The position numbers and the translations under genes are program-made. From positions 138,813 through 202,812 of the forward strand of contig CAZMLK010000002.1 of the NCBI GenBank assembly GCA_964567265.1: a stretch of 64,000 nucleotides of DNA. The letters run 5' to 3'. The notes beneath the pieces were generated by a model that saw only the letters and a program-made list of their open reading frames with translations, was not told the DNA's origin and searched no databases. The stretch comes from an uncultured Candidatus Saccharibacteria bacterium. GTDB lineage: Bacteria > Patescibacteriota > Minisyncoccia > Phycocordibacterales > UBA12088. Every line of letters starts with the position of its first letter. Within the stretch, counting starts at the first letter, position 1. Shown here piece after piece: positions 4,754 through 59,852 of the stretch.

Positions 4754-4983
4754 TGCATTTTTCTTAAAAAAGAATAAACCGTCGACCCAACCTGCACTCT
4801 TCTTGGCGGTGTGCCGGTACGGGGTGCCTTGAGGCAGTGCCCGACCCTAAAAGAATTATATAGTAGGCCATTTTTCACGCAATACATAGCCGTTTGCCGG
4901 GAAATTCATACTGCGCCTGTCAAATCGGAGCCGGCATAGCGGCGCTTGTGCCCCCTTTGACTCTCAAGGTATGCTTATTTCCT

Positions 4984-5541
4984 ATGAAACTTGGAATCTC
5001 AGGGGCAAAAGGCAGTTTTTCAGAGGAGGCGGCTGGTGAATACTGTAGAAAAGAAGGGATCGGGGACGCAGAGATCCAATACCTGGTGAGTGTCGAGAAT
5101 GTGCTCGAATCGGTAGAAAATGGCTCTATAGAGCTGGGAATTTTCCCTATCGAGAACTCGAACGGGGGCATCGTCATCGAAGCAGTCTACGCCATGGCCA
5201 AACACCGCTTCTCAGTCCTCAAGATGTTCGAGATCGACGTCCACCACATGCTCCTTGCGCTTCCGGGTACCAATCCCGACCAGATCACCCTCATTACTTC
5301 CCACGATCAGGCCTTGAAGCAGTGCCGGATGTACTTGAAACGGAAATGGCCGAGTGTGGATATCCAACCCTATCCGGACACCGCGAAGGCCGCAAAAGAC
5401 CTTTCCGAAGGAAATCTGCCGAAAACGGCCGCGGTCATCGCCCCCAAGTCTTGCGCTGCACTCTACAAACTCGACATTCTTGAAGAAAGCATCCAGGATC
5501 TCAAATTCAACTTCACGACGTTCGTCGCGGCGGCTAAATAG
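4984..5541 (+). CDS. prephenate dehydratase (PDT) domain protein, no ACT domain
   Basis: MKLGISGAKGSFSEEAA...ITSHDQALKQCRMYL resembles the PheA PDT domain; ORF-track start at 4894 trimmed to the ATG at 4984. Confidence 0.55.
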   Translation: MKLGISGAKGSFSEEAAGEYCRKEGIGDAEIQYLVSVENVLESVENGSIELGIFPIENSNGGIVIEAVYAMAKHRFSVLKMFEIDVHHMLLALPGTNPDQITLITSHDQALKQCRMYLKRKWPSVDIQPYPDTAKAAKDLSEGNLPKTAAVIAPKSCAALYKLDILEESIQDLKFNFTTFVAAAK

Positions 5542-52994: not shown

Positions 52995-53841
52995 ACATAT
53001 GAAGACCTACAAGCCAACAACACCGTCGCGCCGCCACATCTCGAATCCGAACTACAAGGAGCTTTTGTCTGCGACGACTCCGCACAAGGCGCTCACGAAG
53101 GGACGGAAGCGGAACATGGGCCGCAACAAGGACGGACGCATCACCACCCGCCACAAGGGAGGAGGCAGCAAGCGCCGTTTCCGCGATGTGGATTTCCTCT
53201 ACTCCAAGAAGGACATCGTCGCGAAGATCGAGAGCATCGAATACGATCCGAACCGTACTGGCTTCATCGCGCTCGCGCTCTATGCTGACGGAACCCGCTC
53301 GTACGTCCTCGCACCGAAGTCTCTCAAGGCCGGCTCAACCTTCCTCGTTTCAGAGAAGGCCAAGATCCAGCCGGGGAACCGCCTCCCGCTCGCGAATATC
53401 CCGGTTGGTACCTTTGTGTACAACCTCGAGATCAAGCCGGGAAATGGCTCGAAGATGGTCCGCTCAGCAGGAAACTACGCTGAGGTCATTGCGCAGGACG
53501 GCATTTATGCCCTCGTGAAGATGCCATCGACCGAAGTTCGCAAGTTCCTCGGAAGCGCATGGGCATCGGTTGGTGAGGTCTCAAACGATGAGCACCACCT
53601 CGCGAATGTCGGAAAGGCAGGACGCTCACGCAACAAGGGTATCCGCCCAACGGTTCGCGGTACTGCCATGAACCCAGTCGACCACCCACACGGAGGCGGC
53701 GAAGGAAAGTCTGGACGCGGTCACCGCCGCGCACGCTCTCTCTGGGGCAAGCCGACCGGCAAGGGTCACAAGACTCGCACGCCGAAGAAGTACTCGAACC
53801 ACCTCGTCGTTTCTCGCCGCAAGGTTGGAAAGAAGAAATAA
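52987..53841 (+). CDS. rplB: 50S ribosomal protein L2
   Basis: NPVDHPHGGGEGKSGRG signature; 8-nt overlap with rplW. Confidence 0.95.
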   Translation: MYKHMKTYKPTTPSRRHISNPNYKELLSATTPHKALTKGRKRNMGRNKDGRITTRHKGGGSKRRFRDVDFLYSKKDIVAKIESIEYDPNRTGFIALALYADGTRSYVLAPKSLKAGSTFLVSEKAKIQPGNRLPLANIPVGTFVYNLEIKPGNGSKMVRSAGNYAEVIAQDGIYALVKMPSTEVRKFLGSAWASVGEVSNDEHHLANVGKAGRSRNKGIRPTVRGTAMNPVDHPHGGGEGKSGRGHRRARSLWGKPTGKGHKTRTPKKYSNHLVVSRRKVGKKK

Positions 53842-53859
53842 GATCAAGACACGGGAAGA

Positions 53860-53899
53860 AACAAAAGGGCCGCGCGAACGCGCGGCCCTTTTGTTTTTG
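53860..53899 (+). terminator. terminator aaacaaaagggccgcgcgaacgcgcggcccttttgttttt after rplB
   Basis: 13-bp GC stem plus TTTTGTTTTT. Confidence 0.65.
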
Positions 53900-53911
53900 A
53901 TTGGAAATGAT

Positions 53912-53957
53912 CATAAAAAGATGAAGCCGCCGGCGTGCGTACGTGCGCCGGCGGCTC
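53912..53957 (-). terminator. hairpin aagccgccggcg-tgcgtacgtg-cgccggcggctctt with T-run on the minus strand
   Basis: Downstream of minus-strand ORF 53981-54289. Confidence 0.45.
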
Positions 53958-53980
53958 TTCAATTACACCCGGAAGGGGAG

Positions 53981-54289
53981 CTATCTTTTGCCGTTCTCGG
54001 CCGATAGCAGAAACGCCGTCTTGTCGTTGCGGACGGGACGCGCAGTCATCCTGTTGCCTGTAAGGGCTGCTAGGAGACGCGCAATCTGCTGGAGCTGGCC
54101 TTCGTCGGCGATCGTCACATCAGAACGCATTCCATCCACCAAAAGGTAGATTTGATTATTGCCCCTCATGATGAGCAGGGTGCCGCCGGGAGCCGAGACA
54201 ACGTCCCCCTCTTGGGGTGCTGTGGATCCGAGCTCACCATTGCATCTCAGTTCACATGCCACAATTAGTACCTTCCTGCAGTTTTCCAA
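53981..54289 (-). CDS. hypothetical 102-aa protein (inserted between rplB and rpsS)
   Basis: ORF with its own terminator; LLIMRGNNQIYLLVDG; possibly a small alpha/beta regulatory (roadblock-like) fold, uncertain. Confidence 0.45.
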   Translation of the reverse strand: MENCRKVLIVACELRCNGELGSTAPQEGDVVSAPGGTLLIMRGNNQIYLLVDGMRSDVTIADEGQLQQIARLLAALTGNRMTARPVRNDKTAFLLSAENGKR

Positions 54290-54861
54290 GTGACATTAAG
54301 AAGCAATCTGACGATTTGTCAAATTTCTTCTTTAGGGAAGCCCTAAAAAGATACGCCCCCGAGCTGCTCTGCAGCTCGGGGTACGTGTGTTCAGTAGGGG
54401 AGGGTCATTTCTCCCTGACGCGGCATCTGTGGTTCAAGAGGGACGGAGGACTTGAGCTCCTTCAGCTTGCAAACAAGCCTGAACGCCCTACCTATTTCCT
54501 GCGCCATGCGGTACTTCTGCTTGCCCTTCAGCAATATCGGCGTTTCCAAATAGAAGCTTGCTTCTGCCCTGGACCAGAAACAACGTCGTACCCGTTTCCG
54601 GCCAAGTATCCTGATGGCAACCGCAATTGCCACGGCTTCGAAGTAAGGACGCTCGACAACATAAAGCCCTTTGCACCGGATGAGGAGAAACTCGCAATTG
54701 GTCGTGGCATCTCGGCACCCAAAGTCGCGAACGCTCACGCGCTTGGGGGAAAACGCCTTGGTCATCCACTTTCCTCCAGAAAAGGCGGTAAAGAACAGCC
54801 GATATTAAAAACTCTATACGCCAATCTGTCAAGGGTAAGGAAAGAGGAAAGCGCCTTTTGT

Positions 54862-54890
54862 TTGACAGAAACCCCCGTTTTGCGTACTAT
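54862..54890 (+). promoter_or_regulatory. rpsS-operon promoter TTGACA-N17-TACTAT
   Basis: Consensus -35, 17-nt spacer, near-consensus -10, 40 nt upstream of rpsS. Confidence 0.5.
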
Positions 54891-54929
54891 GCTTCCCAAG
54901 CTCTCTCGCGAGCTATTTTCTTTACAGAA

Positions 54930-55280
54930 ATGACACGATCACTCAAAAAAGGCCCATACGTCGACGAAAAGCTCCTCAAGAAGATCGAGGGGAAGAAGGC
55001 TGGCACCACCGGCCCGATTAAGACGTGGGCACGCCGCTCGCAGATCGCCCCAGAGATGGTCGGCTTCACGTTTGGCGTTCACAATGGCAAAGACCATGTC
55101 CCGGTCCTTGTGAGCGAAGAAATGGTCGGCCATCGCCTTGGAGAGTTCTCTCCGACAACCAAGTTCGTCCGCCACGGCGGTAAGATGCAGAAGGAGCTTG
55201 AATCCAAGCGCAAGGAGGCAGAAGTCGCAGCAGCAAAGGCCGCAAAGGCTCCCGCAGCCGCGCCTGCTAAGAAGAAATAA
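54930..55280 (+). CDS. rpsS: 30S ribosomal protein S19 with Ala/Lys-rich C-terminal tail
   Basis: [20 protein letters not shown]...[10 protein letters not shown]; tail [17 protein letters not shown]; start trimmed to ATG 54930. Confidence 0.9.
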
Positions 55281-55285
55281 GGCAT

Positions 55286-55720
55286 ATGAAGGCTTCCCTC
55301 AACAACTACCGCCAGGCACCTCGCAAGGTCCGCCTCATCACCGATTCCGTCAAAGGGAAGCGCGTTGAGGTCGCACTTGTCGAACTGACCCATGCCCAGA
55401 AGAAGGGAGCCGACCAGATCAAGAAGCTCGTCGCCTCAGCCGTCGCGAACGCGAAGGTCCAGGACAGTGGCCTCAATGTCGCCGAGCTCGTCATCAAGAA
55501 CATCACCGTCGACCAGGGCGTCACTCTCCGCCGCTTCCGTCCGCGCGCCCGCGGACGCGCAGCGCCGATCAATCACGAATCCAGCCATGTCCGCGTGGTC
55601 CTGATGAAGGCAGCGGTCAAGGAAAAGGTCCGTGAGGTCTCTGGAAAGGAGGAGGCAGCAGCGCCAAAGGCAGCCAAGAAATCTGCCAAGATGGCTCCAA
55701 AGGCGGAGACCACCGAGTAA
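55286..55720 (+). CDS. rplV: 50S ribosomal protein L22
   Basis: uL22 core plus basic C-terminal extension. Confidence 0.9.
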   Translation: MKASLNNYRQAPRKVRLITDSVKGKRVEVALVELTHAQKKGADQIKKLVASAVANAKVQDSGLNVAELVIKNITVDQGVTLRRFRPRARGRAAPINHESSHVRVVLMKAAVKEKVREVSGKEEAAAPKAAKKSAKMAPKAETTE

Positions 55721-55741
55721 TTTTCCTATACACCAGACACC

Positions 55742-56515
55742 ATGACACACATTGTCCATCCATATGCACACCGCCTCGGAATCCTTCGCGAATGGAAGTC
55801 GCGCTGGTTTGCCGGCAATCCGAAGATGTTCGCGGAATATTTGAAGTGCGACACCATGCTCCGTGAGTACCTCACGAAGCGCCTTCGTACCATGTACATT
55901 GGCGGACTCGAGTTCGAACGGAATGGTAATACGCTCCGCATCATCATCAAGACATCCCGCCCGGGCATGATCATCGGACGCTCAGGCGAGGGTGCAACCA
56001 AGCTGAAGAGCGACATCGAGAAGGTCCTCTCGAAGCTCAAGCTCTCTGAGAAGCCGGAGCTCAAGATCGACGTCGAGGAAATCCGCAATCCGGAGGCAAA
56101 TGCTGCCATCGTCGCCTACATGGTCGCTGAAGGACTCGAGAAGCGCCTCCCATTCCGCCGCGTGATGAAGCAGACCATGGAGAAGGTTATGGCGAGCCGT
56201 GATGTGCTCGGCTGCCGCATCGTTCTCTCTGGCCGCCTCGGCGGTGCTGAAATGGGTCGCCGCGAAGAGCTCAAGAAGGGACGCATTCCTCTTCAGACCC
56301 TGCGCGCGGACATCGACTTCAAGCGTGAGAAAGCCTACCTTCCGTACGGCGTCGTCGGCGCGAAGGTGTGGATCTACCGCGGCGATGTCTTTGATGCATC
56401 TTCGAAGGACACCCAGGCCCCAAGCAATGACCGCCGCCCGTCATCATCTGACCGCCGCGATTCAGCTCCTCGGAGCGACCGCCCGCGTTCAAGCGCCCCA
56501 GTAAAGCGCTCATAA
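55742..56515 (+). CDS. rpsC: 30S ribosomal protein S3
   Basis: KH domain IIGRSGEGATKLKSDIEKV, uS3 C-domain, Ser/Arg/Asp-rich tail. Confidence 0.92.
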   Translation: MTHIVHPYAHRLGILREWKSRWFAGNPKMFAEYLKCDTMLREYLTKRLRTMYIGGLEFERNGNTLRIIIKTSRPGMIIGRSGEGATKLKSDIEKVLSKLKLSEKPELKIDVEEIRNPEANAAIVAYMVAEGLEKRLPFRRVMKQTMEKVMASRDVLGCRIVLSGRLGGAEMGRREELKKGRIPLQTLRADIDFKREKAYLPYGVVGAKVWIYRGDVFDASSKDTQAPSNDRRPSSSDRRDSAPRSDRPRSSAPVKRS

Positions 56516-58126: not shown

Positions 58127-58660
58127 ATGGAAATGGTTCAGGAAAAACAGAATAGCGCCTTCGCAACCCTCAAGGGAGATTTCGGATACACGAACAAGAT
58201 GCAGTCACCGAAGCTCGTGAAGGTGGTCATCTCGGTCGGAACCGGCTCAAACAAGGATAAGGAGAAGATCAAGGTCATCGAGAACCGCCTGCCGAAGATT
58301 ACAGGCCAGAAGGCTGCACAGCGGACGGCGAAGAAGGCTATCGCCTCATTCAAGACACGCACCGGCATGGTGATCGGCTACCAGGTGACGCTCCGCGGCC
58401 AGCGCATGATGGACTTCCTCAACAAGCTCATCCACGTCGCCCTCCCGCGTACGCGCGACTTCCGCGGCCTCTCCGCAAAGTCTATCGATGACATGGGCAA
58501 CTACACCCTCGGCATCAAGGAGAACACCATTTTCCCAGAGACATCGGACGAAGACTTGAAGGATGTGTTTGGTCTCGCGATCACGATTGTGACGACTGCG
58601 AAGTCGAAGCCGGAAGCAGAAGCCTTCCTCCGCCACATCGGCATGCCGCTTCAGAAATAG
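58127..58660 (+). CDS. rplE: 50S ribosomal protein L5
   Basis: DFRGLSAKSIDDMGNYTLGIKENTIFPE. Confidence 0.92.
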   Translation: MEMVQEKQNSAFATLKGDFGYTNKMQSPKLVKVVISVGTGSNKDKEKIKVIENRLPKITGQKAAQRTAKKAIASFKTRTGMVIGYQVTLRGQRMMDFLNKLIHVALPRTRDFRGLSAKSIDDMGNYTLGIKENTIFPETSDEDLKDVFGLAITIVTTAKSKPEAEAFLRHIGMPLQK

Positions 58661-58677
58661 ACCCAGAAATTTTAAAG

Positions 58678-58720
58678 AAACAAAAGGCCCCCGGCGCTTC
58701 GCGCCGGGGGCCTTTTGTTT
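58678..58720 (+). terminator. terminator aaacaaaaggcccccggcgcttcgcgccgggggccttttgttt after rplE
   Basis: 16-bp GC stem, TTTTGTTT tract that runs directly into the next promoter's -35. Confidence 0.65.
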
Positions 58721-58747
58721 GACAAGCCGCCAAATCATCAGTACCAT
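58719..58747 (+). promoter_or_regulatory. promoter TTGACA-N17-TACCAT
   Basis: -35 overlaps the terminator U-tract; drives small ORF 58804-58986. Confidence 0.45.
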
Positions 58748-58803
58748 CGATTTTTGGAACGATAGCCGGGCAATTCCGCCCCTATCCATCCGGAGAGTTT
58801 CAG

Positions 58804-58986
58804 ATGCCGACCAAGGGTTCGCCGATGAAGCGGTTCCGTCCGAATCGGGGCCAGCAAACACCAGGACAGCGTGCTTCAGCGCTCCGAAAACTGCGGCAAC
58901 GAGGGCACAAAGTAGCAACCCGGACCATCGAGGACGCGAGACGCGCGGCATATGGCGCTCGAAAGGCAAATTTGACTGCCGACTGA
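58804..58986 (+). CDS. hypothetical 60-aa basic protein
   Basis: Own promoter and own terminator; Arg/Lys-rich (pI high); no motif. Confidence 0.35.
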   Translation: MPTKGSPMKRFRPNRGQQTPGQRASALRKLRQRGHKVATRTIEDARRAAYGARKANLTAD

Positions 58987-59012
58987 TCATTCACGCTAGG
59001 AGCTGGTAACGT

Positions 59013-59043
59013 ACACCGGCCGAGGTTCCCTCGGCCGGTGTTT
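59013..59043 (+). terminator. terminator acaccggccgagg-gttc-cctcggccggtgt + TTGCTTTT
   Basis: 13-bp stem. Confidence 0.55.
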
Positions 59044-59047
59044 GCTT

Positions 59048-59075
59048 TTGACAATGGCTGAGAAGGTCGTACTAT
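59048..59075 (+). promoter_or_regulatory. promoter TTGACA-N16-TACTAT
   Basis: Drives ORF 59109-59516. Confidence 0.45.
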
Positions 59076-59108
59076 CGTCAGTAGTGTGCTCTGTGCGGAG
59101 GGGATGAG

Positions 59109-59516
59109 ATGACACAGGTAAGCATGTTCGGGTTGCCGACGCTCGCAGTCGAGATCGTGGGTGACCATGTCCACAGCCTTACGCACTACTTGTTCGAGAC
59201 GAGTCGGATGGTCGGGGAGGATGGGGCCGTTTCCCATTACGCAGCAGTCGTGTACGCCAGGCTTCCGTTCGGATTAGATGCGGTGTATCGGAATGAGGGA
59301 GCTGCCAGCGTTCCAACCAGCAGGCTGATCGAATCCGGCTCCCGTGACCCCATTTTGGCGGCGGTACCAGGGCTTTTCAAGTATCAGGCCGATACGAAAG
59401 CATCCTGGGACGCATTTCTCCGGGAAAAGCTCCTGCCGTATGTGCCTGCCGGCAGAATTCTAGTCCTTTGGATCAGTGAAGACGGCGCCACTGAGACCTC
59501 GTTTGTCGTATCGTAG
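59109..59516 (+). CDS. hypothetical 135-aa protein
   Basis: Own promoter and terminator; no motif recognised. Confidence 0.45.
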   Translation: MTQVSMFGLPTLAVEIVGDHVHSLTHYLFETSRMVGEDGAVSHYAAVVYARLPFGLDAVYRNEGAASVPTSRLIESGSRDPILAAVPGLFKYQADTKASWDAFLREKLLPYVPAGRILVLWISEDGATETSFVVS

Positions 59517-59532
59517 CCGCCCCTTGAGACTA

Positions 59533-59570
59533 CGCCGCCGGCCAGGTTTCCTGGCCGGCGGCTCTCTTTT
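59533..59570 (+). terminator. terminator cgccgccggccagg-tttc-ctggccggcggc + TCTCTTTT
   Basis: 13-bp GC stem. Confidence 0.55.
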
Positions 59571-59580
59571 CCGCCTTTGT

Positions 59581-59609
59581 TTGACAATGTATATTCAGGC
59601 TGTTAGTAT
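59581..59609 (+). promoter_or_regulatory. promoter TTGACA-N17-TAGTAT for the rpsN-secY block
   Basis: 57 nt upstream of rpsN. Confidence 0.5.
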
Positions 59610-59666
59610 AGCCGGAAGCTCGTTTAGGGCTTTCTTTTTTAGTTAGGCCTCGAAGAAGCACGCCAC

Positions 59667-59852
59667 ATGGCAAAGACATCAGTAAAGGTCCGGGCAGCCC
59701 GGACACCGAAGTTCGCAAGCCGCGTCGTACGACGCTGTTTCCGTTGTGGCCGCAAGCATGCGTTCATGCGCGATTTCGGACTTTGCCGCATCTGCTTCCG
59801 CGAACAGGCTAACGAAGGAAATATCCCAGGAATCAAGAAATCATCATGGTAA
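59667..59852 (+). CDS. rpsZ: 30S ribosomal protein S14 type Z (zinc-binding)
   Basis: 61 aa, [21 protein letters not shown]4 zinc knuckle. Confidence 0.92.

Follow-up and report, generated by a model that had tools for sequence, protein, structure and literature searches.

What fills the space between rplB and rpsS, two genes that usually adjoin, in a Patescibacteria genome of the class Paceibacteria? We examined this junction in a 64-kb window, by which we mean the whole analyzed stretch of 64,000 nucleotides (nt) of contig CAZMLK010000002.1. The rplB stop codon at 53841 and the rpsS ATG at 54930 are separated by 1088 nt, and a gap of about 1.1 kb at this position is unusual among bacteria in general. 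An earlier sequence-only reading had described the gap as a 1.1-kb insertion, which is real relative to the usual adjacency, and had supposed that it consisted of one minus-strand gene and about 570 bp of decayed gene or structured RNA. Our results pointed to a different content. The junction probably holds a small accessory-gene islet within a lineage-wide break of the S10 operon, in which the alleles of small genes are exchanged between strains through conserved regulatory scaffolds. The islet of this genome is made up of two minus-strand genes, which we call orf102 (slot 1) and orf124 (slot 2).

The segment 54290-54860 had been read as lacking a convincing open reading frame (ORF), with one minus-strand candidate noted as possibly real. 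This candidate, orf124 (54391..54765, minus strand), is an uninterrupted ORF of 124 codons, and its product is a basic protein of 124 amino acids (aa) with an isoelectric point (pI) of 10.1. Protein homologs, which the earlier reading had named as the mark of an unannotated gene, were found. A search of 5.8 billion proteins returned P0001, a 124-aa protein 90% identical to orf124, whose contig L001 shares the rplD-rplW-rplB / rpsS neighbourhood. The assemblies compared here with the window belong to the same species-level lineage and are all metagenome assemblies. Among them, the orf124 homologs of L001, L087 and L094 were 76-90% identical to the window protein, and that of L082 was 32% identical (E 2e-11). 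The exact protein of the window was also present in NCBI (P0006) as well as in Logan. The one-nucleotide conflict that had been suspected near 54480 was not a frameshift, since the same frame was intact without indels in four other assemblies.

The pattern of substitutions agreed with a protein-coding function. Between the window and L001, the ratio of nonsynonymous to synonymous substitution rates (dN/dS) of orf124 was 0.22, the third codon positions held 19 of the 32 differences, and no indels were present. All six pairwise comparisons among the 124-aa orf124 alleles gave dN/dS values of 0.22-0.53. Together with the promoter, the ribosome-binding site (RBS) and the terminator described below, these features indicated that selection acts on the orf124 frame and that orf124 is a real coding sequence. 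The competing plus-strand ORF of 238 aa (54217-54933) was rejected as a gene, since its dN/dS was 3.8 and L001 has a stop codon within it. For this genome, orf124 had a low codon-usage score (~0.00). The stored gene calls of three Logan assemblies missed orf124 (L084 2264-3351, L094 6121-6788 and L097 1-534). Those of L084 also lacked orf102, despite the identity of L084 to the window, and L094 has an intact orf124 ORF. Protein catalogues built from such gene calls are likely to under-count small genes of this kind.

The expression signals of orf124, read in the sequence, lie in the minus-strand half (54766..54861) of a region of divergent promoters termed IG3, and were conserved in L001, L087, L082 and L094. 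The putative RBS, GGAGGA at 54777-54772, is placed 6 nt ahead of the ATG. The predicted promoter is near-consensus, with a -35 box TTGACA at 54832-54827, a 17-nt spacer and a -10 box TTTAAT at 54809-54804. At the other end of the gene, the hairpin and T-run seen in the sequence-only reading were located at 54357-54381, as a GC-rich stem of 11 bp (-27.5 kcal/mol) followed by a U-run. This terminator hairpin forms the first part of a composite terminator-promoter spacer, IG2 (54281..54390, minus strand). The second part is the putative promoter of slot 1, with a -35 box TTGACA at 54322-54317, a 17-nt spacer and a -10 box TTAATG at 54299-54294. The longest ORFs of the two genes are 101 nt apart (54290-54390), with the hairpin, the U-run and the separate promoter in between. 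IG2 was 99% identical in L001 and 94.8% identical in L082, where both adjoining coding sequences differ. Its hairpin, CCCCGAGC...GCTCGGGG, and the sequence TTGACAAATC with the -35 box were recognisable in another species, L002. A blastn comparison of the insertion against the 64-kb window found no second copy of IG2 or IG3.

The outer borders of the islet are also regulatory. A perfect 18-nt inverted repeat following rplB (53859..53896, both strands) was predicted to fold into a bidirectional intrinsic terminator, flanked by A-runs and T-runs, with folding energies of -34.2 kcal/mol (plus strand, z -8.4) and -31.9 kcal/mol (minus strand). The rplB terminator noted in the earlier reading was thereby located. 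It was 100% identical in L001, and the homology between strains broke off at 53897/8, so that the predicted terminator is the conserved left anchor of the islet. On the right, the consensus rpsS promoter proposed earlier was read as TTGACA-17-TACTAT at 54862..54890 on the plus strand, back to back with the orf124 promoter. The rpsS leader (54899..54929, plus strand) contains a short predicted hairpin (AGCUC-UCUCGC-GAGCU) and a U-rich tract that extends up to the ATG, and has no Shine-Dalgarno sequence. The neighbouring genes themselves are rplB (ribosomal protein L2, 52999..53841, plus strand) and rpsS (ribosomal protein S19, 54930..55280, plus strand). The former was identified by its ORF and translation and by a Pfam Ribosomal_L2 match to the identical product in L001 and L082. 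By context, rplB is the last gene of the upstream ribosomal-protein transcription unit, and rpsS is the first gene of the downstream unit.

Comparison of strains revealed that these scaffolds were kept while the coding segments between them were replaced. L084 (SRR16481187) was identical to the window in the ribosomal genes (100% over 3621 nt), and its slot 1, IG2, slot 2 and IG3 were all as in the window. In L001/L083 (SRR14932526), the ribosomal genes were 99.7-100% identical, IG2 99% and IG3 94.5%, while slot 1 was occupied by unrelated DNA encoding a 113-aa protein (orf113). The orf124 genes of the window and L001 were 91.5% identical, with the 32 substitutions packed in about 235 nt (54456-54690), against 1 difference in the 843 nt of rplB. 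Of the ribosomal genes, L087 (SRR14932549) covered the first ~60 nt of rpsS only, which were identical, and its slot 1 was of the 113-aa type. Its orf124 allele (P0007) was a mosaic, with a window-like 5' part and an L001-like 3' part. The L087 IG2 differed by one change in the hairpin loop and 4 more and was otherwise as in the window, and its IG3 carried 4 substitutions and 1 single-base insertion.

More distant strains showed larger replacements. In L094/L097 (SRR28480386/82), the ribosomal genes were ~95% identical, slot 1 was of the 113-aa type and the identity was 93% over 54281-55826. Slot 2 held a third 124-aa allele, whose dS to the window was 0.485 compared with 0.121 in rplB. In L082/L086 (SRR31757426/29), identity was 94.7% in the ribosomal genes and 87% in IG3. 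Slot 2 of these strains encodes a 119-aa homolog of orf124 (P0005), and slot 1 encodes a 121-aa distant homolog of the 113-aa protein (26%, E 1e-6). Both coding segments of L082 were unalignable to the window as DNA, and the homology break of slot 2 fell on the start and stop codons of orf124. Variable slot 1 of the window (53898..54280, minus strand), comprising the orf102 RBS, coding sequence and terminator, likewise could not be aligned to L001, L082 or L094, which carry unrelated sequence there, while both flanks were 93-100% identical. The same islet architecture was found in six sequencing runs.

The 119-aa allele allowed the age of this variation to be judged. At residues conserved between the 124-aa and 119-aa proteins, 10 of 32 codons were identical, compared with 255 of 274 in rplB of the same genome pair. 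So few identical codons at conserved residues indicated that the alleles long predate the divergence of the two genomes carrying them. Because synonymous sites were saturated between orf124 and the L082 allele while the flanks remained 87-95% identical, fast evolution in place appeared to be excluded, and the import of alleles and their exchange by recombination were implied.

The sequence-only reading had placed the first minus-strand gene at 53981-54289, with a terminator of its own. The ORF and the terminator were both recovered, but the start codon probably lies further downstream. The likely form of orf102 (53981..54262, minus strand) has 93 aa and starts at GTG 54262, which has GGAAGG 8 nt upstream, while the longest ORF reaches TTG 54289 (102 aa). 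This 93-aa form is the NCBI-held protein P0002, and its pI is 6.2. The predicted terminator (53925..53956, minus strand) is an inverted repeat of -25.8 kcal/mol (z -4.4) followed by a U-run. No other homolog of orf102 was found among the 5.8 billion proteins. A "Q.GDV" patch seen by eye had raised the idea that orf102 is a diverged member of the orf113 family, which was rejected, as BLASTP gave no alignment and hhalign a probability of 0.2%. The sister strain L001 has a different terminator at the position of the orf102 terminator. Both 11-nt stem arms of the latter (AGCCGCCGGCG...CGCCGGCGGCT) recur in the terminator of the L002 slot-1 gene (L002 5313-5340). These observations hint at a more distant lineage as the source of the orf102 cassette or of its 3' end.

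The proteins of the islet had no recognisable relatives outside the lineage. Searches of Pfam, NCBIfam, PHROGs and PADLOC with orf124, orf102 and their allelic counterparts gave no hit, none having an E value below 0.09, and a PDB sequence search with the islet proteins gave no match among solved structures. Single-sequence word-indexed and profile searches of the 5.8 billion proteins, and a full HMMER scan of 1.84 billion representatives, recovered orf124 alleles of this lineage only. Two long repeat proteins, of the helix-turn-helix and tetratricopeptide types, appeared in the HMMER scan through multi-stretch matches and were regarded as artefacts. A scan of IMG/VR viral contigs for all three protein families found no relatives. 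In the searches made here, orf124 and orf102 were confined to this species-level lineage. The best AlphaFold2 model of orf124 (pLDDT 76.9, pTM 0.68) was a β-β-α-β-β-α sandwich with a long basic C-terminal helix, and a Foldseek search of this model against PDB and BFVD returned nothing significant. The orf102 model was unreliable (pLDDT 46). We rejected orf124 as an HUH endonuclease because the window protein contains no histidine; the family alignment has no invariant histidine column either.

The break that houses the islet was not peculiar to this genome. Relatives found through rplB were all Patescibacteria of the Paceibacteria group, with labels such as Adlerbacteria, Kaiserbacteria, Nomurabacteria and Paceibacterota, and the closest species representative, L002, was 79% identical in L2. 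The comparison of the junction in relatives that the sequence-only reading had proposed revealed that it is usually split. In the 62 relatives with both genes, the rplB-rpsS gap ranged from 59 to 3794 nt with a median of ~600 nt; it was at least 300 nt in 46 and at least 1 kb in 19, and the window gap of ~1.1 kb falls within this range. A further 18 relatives had no rpsS within the available downstream sequence. Most of 58 relatives carried a TTGAC-type promoter of their own upstream of rpsS, followed by a hairpin and a U-rich tract before the start codon. Where the gap of a relative is short, the T-run of the terminator directly adjoins the -35 box. Since most relatives have a gap and an rpsS promoter is present almost everywhere, the split appears to be an old trait of the clade rather than a recent accident of this genome. 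Literature searches gave no relevant description of the rplB/rpsS split or of ribosomal-operon insertions in Patescibacteria or the candidate phyla radiation.

The contents of the gap differed by lineage. They included, in 8 species, a family of small proteins that has no known relatives, a 6-member DgkA-like group and a 3-member phosphoribosyltransferase-like group, the last two assigned by eye from translations, along with other unassigned ORFs. L002 follows the same plan as the window, with a minus-strand gene that is a weak match to the 113-aa family (E 0.009) and an unrelated 128-aa minus-strand ORF adjoining the rpsS promoter. It also has an extra 108-aa gene in the gap (4901-5227, minus strand), which encodes a DnaA C-terminal helix-turn-helix domain and nothing else (Pfam Bac_DnaA_C, E 1.7e-15). 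The 8-species family (consensus MRSYNFRYRHGQSMP...GSVTCTVSE.RKVPEP, ~60-95 aa) is encoded on the minus strand, immediately ahead of the rpsS promoter and in divergent orientation to it. Its members are located at L016 4902-5162 and 6057-6386 (two copies), L024 4907-5143, L027 4900-5091, L034 4909-5148, L046 3393-3803, L048 2428-2841, L055 4952-5239 and L072 5318-5578, all on the minus strand. A relationship of orf124 to this family or to the 128-aa protein of L002 was rejected (hhalign probability 0.1%).

Taken together, these results suggested how the islet might work. The two genes would be monocistronic, each with its own sigma-70-type promoter, RBS and intrinsic terminator. Transcription of rplB would end at the bidirectional terminator, and that of rpsS would restart from its own promoter, back to back with that of orf124. 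The rplB terminator, the IG2 spacer and the divergent promoters of IG3 would serve as three scaffolds kept between strains, and the coding segments between them would be swapped as whole alleles by homologous recombination anchored in the scaffolds. Such exchange could keep deeply divergent alleles in one population, possibly under balancing or frequency-dependent selection. As to function, the slot-2 proteins have pI values of 10-11 and the slot-1 proteins of this species 4.75-6.2, and the slot-2 and slot-1 alleles that diverge most occur together, in L082. From this charge complementarity, the joint divergence of both slots and the upkeep of ancient alleles, we tentatively propose that the products might interact as a basic/acidic pair of the toxin-antitoxin, defence or self-recognition kind, although our confidence in this guess is low. 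A bolder extension, likewise doubtful, is that the rplB/rpsS break of Paceibacteria is a docking site, with fixed scaffolds, interchangeable genes without relatives, ancient alleles under frequency-dependent selection and an undescribed rpsS leader RNA. If so, the genes could serve, for example, in phage defence, in telling self from non-self or in the interaction of these episymbionts with their host cell; their antisense, divergent placement could couple their expression to the ribosomal-protein units, and the site would be a cellular counterpart of the PeSL (promoter-early/stem-loop) hyperplastic regions of phages.

Several points weigh against the accessory-islet explanation and its functional extension. 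The promoters and terminators are consensus matches and predicted folds. As a singleton, orf102 owes its coding status to these signals and the NCBI call, and its codon score is ~0.02, compared with 0.4-0.7 for typical genes here. IG2 is single in the 64-kb window, which gives no sign of a mobile or multi-copy cassette border. The higher synonymous divergence of the islet genes could partly reflect a weaker codon-usage constraint than that of ribosomal genes, but such a constraint cannot explain the dS of 0.235 against ~0 in the window-L001 pair. Strains may also be blended in some of the contigs, which are short metagenome assemblies. The orf124 structure was confident in one of five AlphaFold2 models, the other four being poor. 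The functional guess has no domain support from Pfam, NCBIfam, PHROGs or PADLOC, and a strong terminator with a separate promoter between the genes is atypical for toxin-antitoxin operons.

Other explanations fitted the data less well. The earlier suggestion of a decayed gene or structured non-coding RNA in 54290-54860 now seems very improbable. The codon score of orf124, the missing family hits and the Logan callers that skip it in L084 and L094 would suit this suggestion, but the frame is intact and indel-free in five assemblies, its dN/dS of 0.22-0.53 and third-position bias are those of a constrained frame, and a strong RBS and near-consensus promoter precede it. A structured RNA found no better support. 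An Rfam E-value scan of 53700-55100, a check that the sequence-only reading had put forward, yielded only terminator look-alikes at 53856-53991, with at most 30 bits against gathering scores of 40-111, and only noise in 54391-54860 (Bacillus-plasmid 21.7 against 31; F6 21.5 against 46). No gathering score was reached, and on both strands the folding energy of the segment was no better than that of shuffled sequences (z +0.23 and +0.58). The segment corresponds to no known structured RNA and shows no evident RNA structure. It is just as hard to credit that the variation arose from misassembly or misbinning into chimeric contigs. All of the sequences are metagenome assemblies and L087, with 905 nt only, could blend strains; against this, the independent Logan assembly L084 matches the window at every base over 3621 nt, the L082 variant was seen again in the L086 run and the L094 variant in L097, and all assemblies agree in architecture. 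Genes specific to the lineage and born de novo might instead evolve fast in place in a permissive gap, without allele exchange. The lack of homologs outside the lineage, the weak codon adaptation and the different unrelated small ORFs that different species carry at the same junction all accord with such an origin. Evolution in place is nonetheless improbable in view of the saturated synonymous sites between the 124-aa and 119-aa alleles beside 87-95% identical flanks, the mosaic L087 allele and the window-L001 contrast of 32 substitutions in orf124 with 1 in rplB. A de novo origin of the families is compatible with an exchanged islet, and only the absence of exchange is contradicted.

A type II toxin-antitoxin-like or abortive-infection/defence pair would explain both the fast turnover and the divergent alleles, and we consider it unlikely rather than remote. 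Strain-level allele replacement is typical of conflict systems. Here a small basic protein is encoded beside a small acidic or neutral one, the slots co-vary in L082 and both families are under purifying selection. However, no Pfam, NCBIfam, PHROGs or PADLOC match appeared even at E values up to 10, and no DNA-binding antitoxin domain was detected. The genes are 101 nt apart, with an 11-bp GC-rich terminator and a separate promoter in between, and orf124-type alleles are paired with orf102 in some strains and with the unrelated orf113 in others. The internal terminator, the separate promoters and this free re-assortment speak against a classical operon. Improbable to a still greater degree is a remnant or cargo of a mobile element (an insertion sequence, a miniature inverted-repeat transposable element, a prophage fragment or an integron-type cassette) that came to lie between the terminator of rplB and the promoter of rpsS. 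Both edges of the insert (53887-53896 and 54854-54863) carry CCTTTTGTTT, an exact direct repeat of 10 nt, and the terminator T-run abutting the -35 box in short-gap relatives would be a plausible original target. Yet, by our estimate, chance would give about 0.7 exact 10-mer repeats in 1.2 kb, and CCTTTTGTTT is T-rich. No transposase, integrase or terminal inverted repeats beyond the terminators were found, orf124 has no histidine and hence no HUH motif, neither IMG/VR relatives nor a PHROG hit were obtained, and no part of the insertion has a second copy within the 64-kb window. As regards integron cassettes, the gene calls of the assemblies included no integrase for several kb around the junction, and the only palindromes were terminator-like. 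We rejected orf124 as the target of a diversity-generating retroelement, as the substitutions were 22 transitions and 10 transversions, 19 of the 32 fell in third positions and no repeat of the region occurred in the window.

The two copies of CCTTTTGTTT coincide with the tail of the rplB terminator and with the bases abutting the rpsS -35 box. The repeat could be a footprint of an original insertion between the terminator T-run and the -35 box, or a product of chance.

The leader of rpsS deserves separate description. The window hairpin is weak, with 5 bp and -7.6 kcal/mol (z -1.4). The rpsS -10 box and leader, including the short hairpin and AUUUUCUUU, form a 43-nt stretch (window 54883-54925) that is 100% identical to L002 6352-6394, and many other relatives have a GCUC...GAGC hairpin and a U-tract at this position. 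As the hairpin lies at about the predicted transcription start, it may be a 5' stabiliser or a protein-binding site rather than a terminator. A scan of JGI metagenomes with the conserved 26-nt leader gave 0 hits. Fifteen relatives carry a longer element of ~57 nt just upstream of rpsS (L017, L018, L019, L026, L027, L034, L043, L046, L048, L055, L059, L070, L072, L080 and L081; for example, L043 5724-5780). Between the TTGAC-type promoter and the rpsS start, it comprises an irregular ~47-nt hairpin with the invariant apical loop CGCUCKCUG, followed by AUUUnAUUU. In the alignment, 97.3% of cells were paired and 9 of 15 pairs showed compensatory changes, a result obtained in 0 of 500 shuffles, with slid controls at 29-52%. 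A covariance model, R1, matched these 15 genomes at the rpsS-leader position only, with 60-84 bits. This long hairpin is a candidate for a new ribosomal-protein leader RNA and a worthwhile lead; the Rfam scan was confined to window 53700-55100. Membership of the window leader in this family gained no support from R1, which does not detect it; the leader sequence is nevertheless fully conserved in L002.

Elsewhere in the same ribosomal cluster, the window carries a second insertion of ~1 kb (58661-59666), between rplE (58127-58660) and the zinc-type S14 gene (59667-59852). It contains a plus-strand ORF of 135 aa (59109-59516), for which no Pfam hit is recorded. In contrast to the situation in the rplB-rpsS islet, the other strains have this ORF at a similar length (135-138 aa). 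The sequence just past rplE (58675-58720) is similar to the rplB terminator.

These findings have consequences for annotation and for the view of this group. Two small genes can be placed where the callers of three Logan assemblies (L084, L094 and L097) called nothing, and contiguity of the S10 operon should not be assumed in this Patescibacteria class. A genome of minimal size keeps a tiny, highly strain-diverse locus inside its most conserved gene cluster. Loci with ancient allelic diversity usually mark biological conflict or recognition functions, of which little is known for the uncultured Patescibacteria, thought to be episymbionts. With its conserved regulatory scaffolds, the islet offers a simple model of small-gene swapping by recombination that can be tested from population data.

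The closest parallels to this arrangement lie in several known systems. Chromosomal hot spots or islets, in which accessory genes sit between core genes, are a general phenomenon of bacterial pangenomes. As in those islets, the core flanks are identical and the cargo is specific to the strain, and turnover would likewise proceed through homologous recombination in the flanks. It differs in being tiny (two genes, ~1 kb), in lying in the middle of the normally contiguous S10-spc cluster, in having regulatory borders rather than core genes, and in carrying a cargo found only in this lineage in every search. Type II toxin-antitoxin modules resemble it as small adjacent gene pairs with basic and acidic or neutral products and high allelic turnover; the islet differs from them in having no recognised toxin or antitoxin domain, a terminator and separate promoters, and partners that are not strictly linked. 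Ribosomal-protein operons often begin with autoregulatory structures in the 5' untranslated region, such as the S10 leader of E. coli and the r-protein leader families of Rfam. The rpsS unit similarly has a conserved promoter-proximal hairpin, which is longer and strongly covarying in the 15 relatives, but no Rfam family matched in the window scan, and the window hairpin is short, weak and not recognised by R1.

The PeSL motifs in the hyperplastic regions of T4-like phages are composite terminator-promoter sequences proposed to act as exchange points between unrelated small ORFs (Arbiol et al. 2010, PMC2839356; Comeau et al. 2014, PMC4122927). As in those regions, small ORFs of little-known function lie here between conserved stem-loop and promoter sequences and are replaced between close genomes, and IG2, with its hairpin and TTGACA promoter, is conserved between close relatives whose ORFs on its two sides differ. 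The islet is located on a cellular chromosome within a ribosomal-protein cluster, whereas PeSLs are found in phages. IG2 is also single-copy in the 64-kb window, while PeSLs are dispersed repeats, and it reads as terminator then promoter for two tandem minus-strand genes only, with no evidence of a circular intermediate. Overall, the locus, notable for its placement and its ancient alleles, is of a known kind, combining an accessory-gene hot spot with probable cassette exchange mediated by regulatory scaffolds; it carries new protein families, but nothing in it is categorically new.

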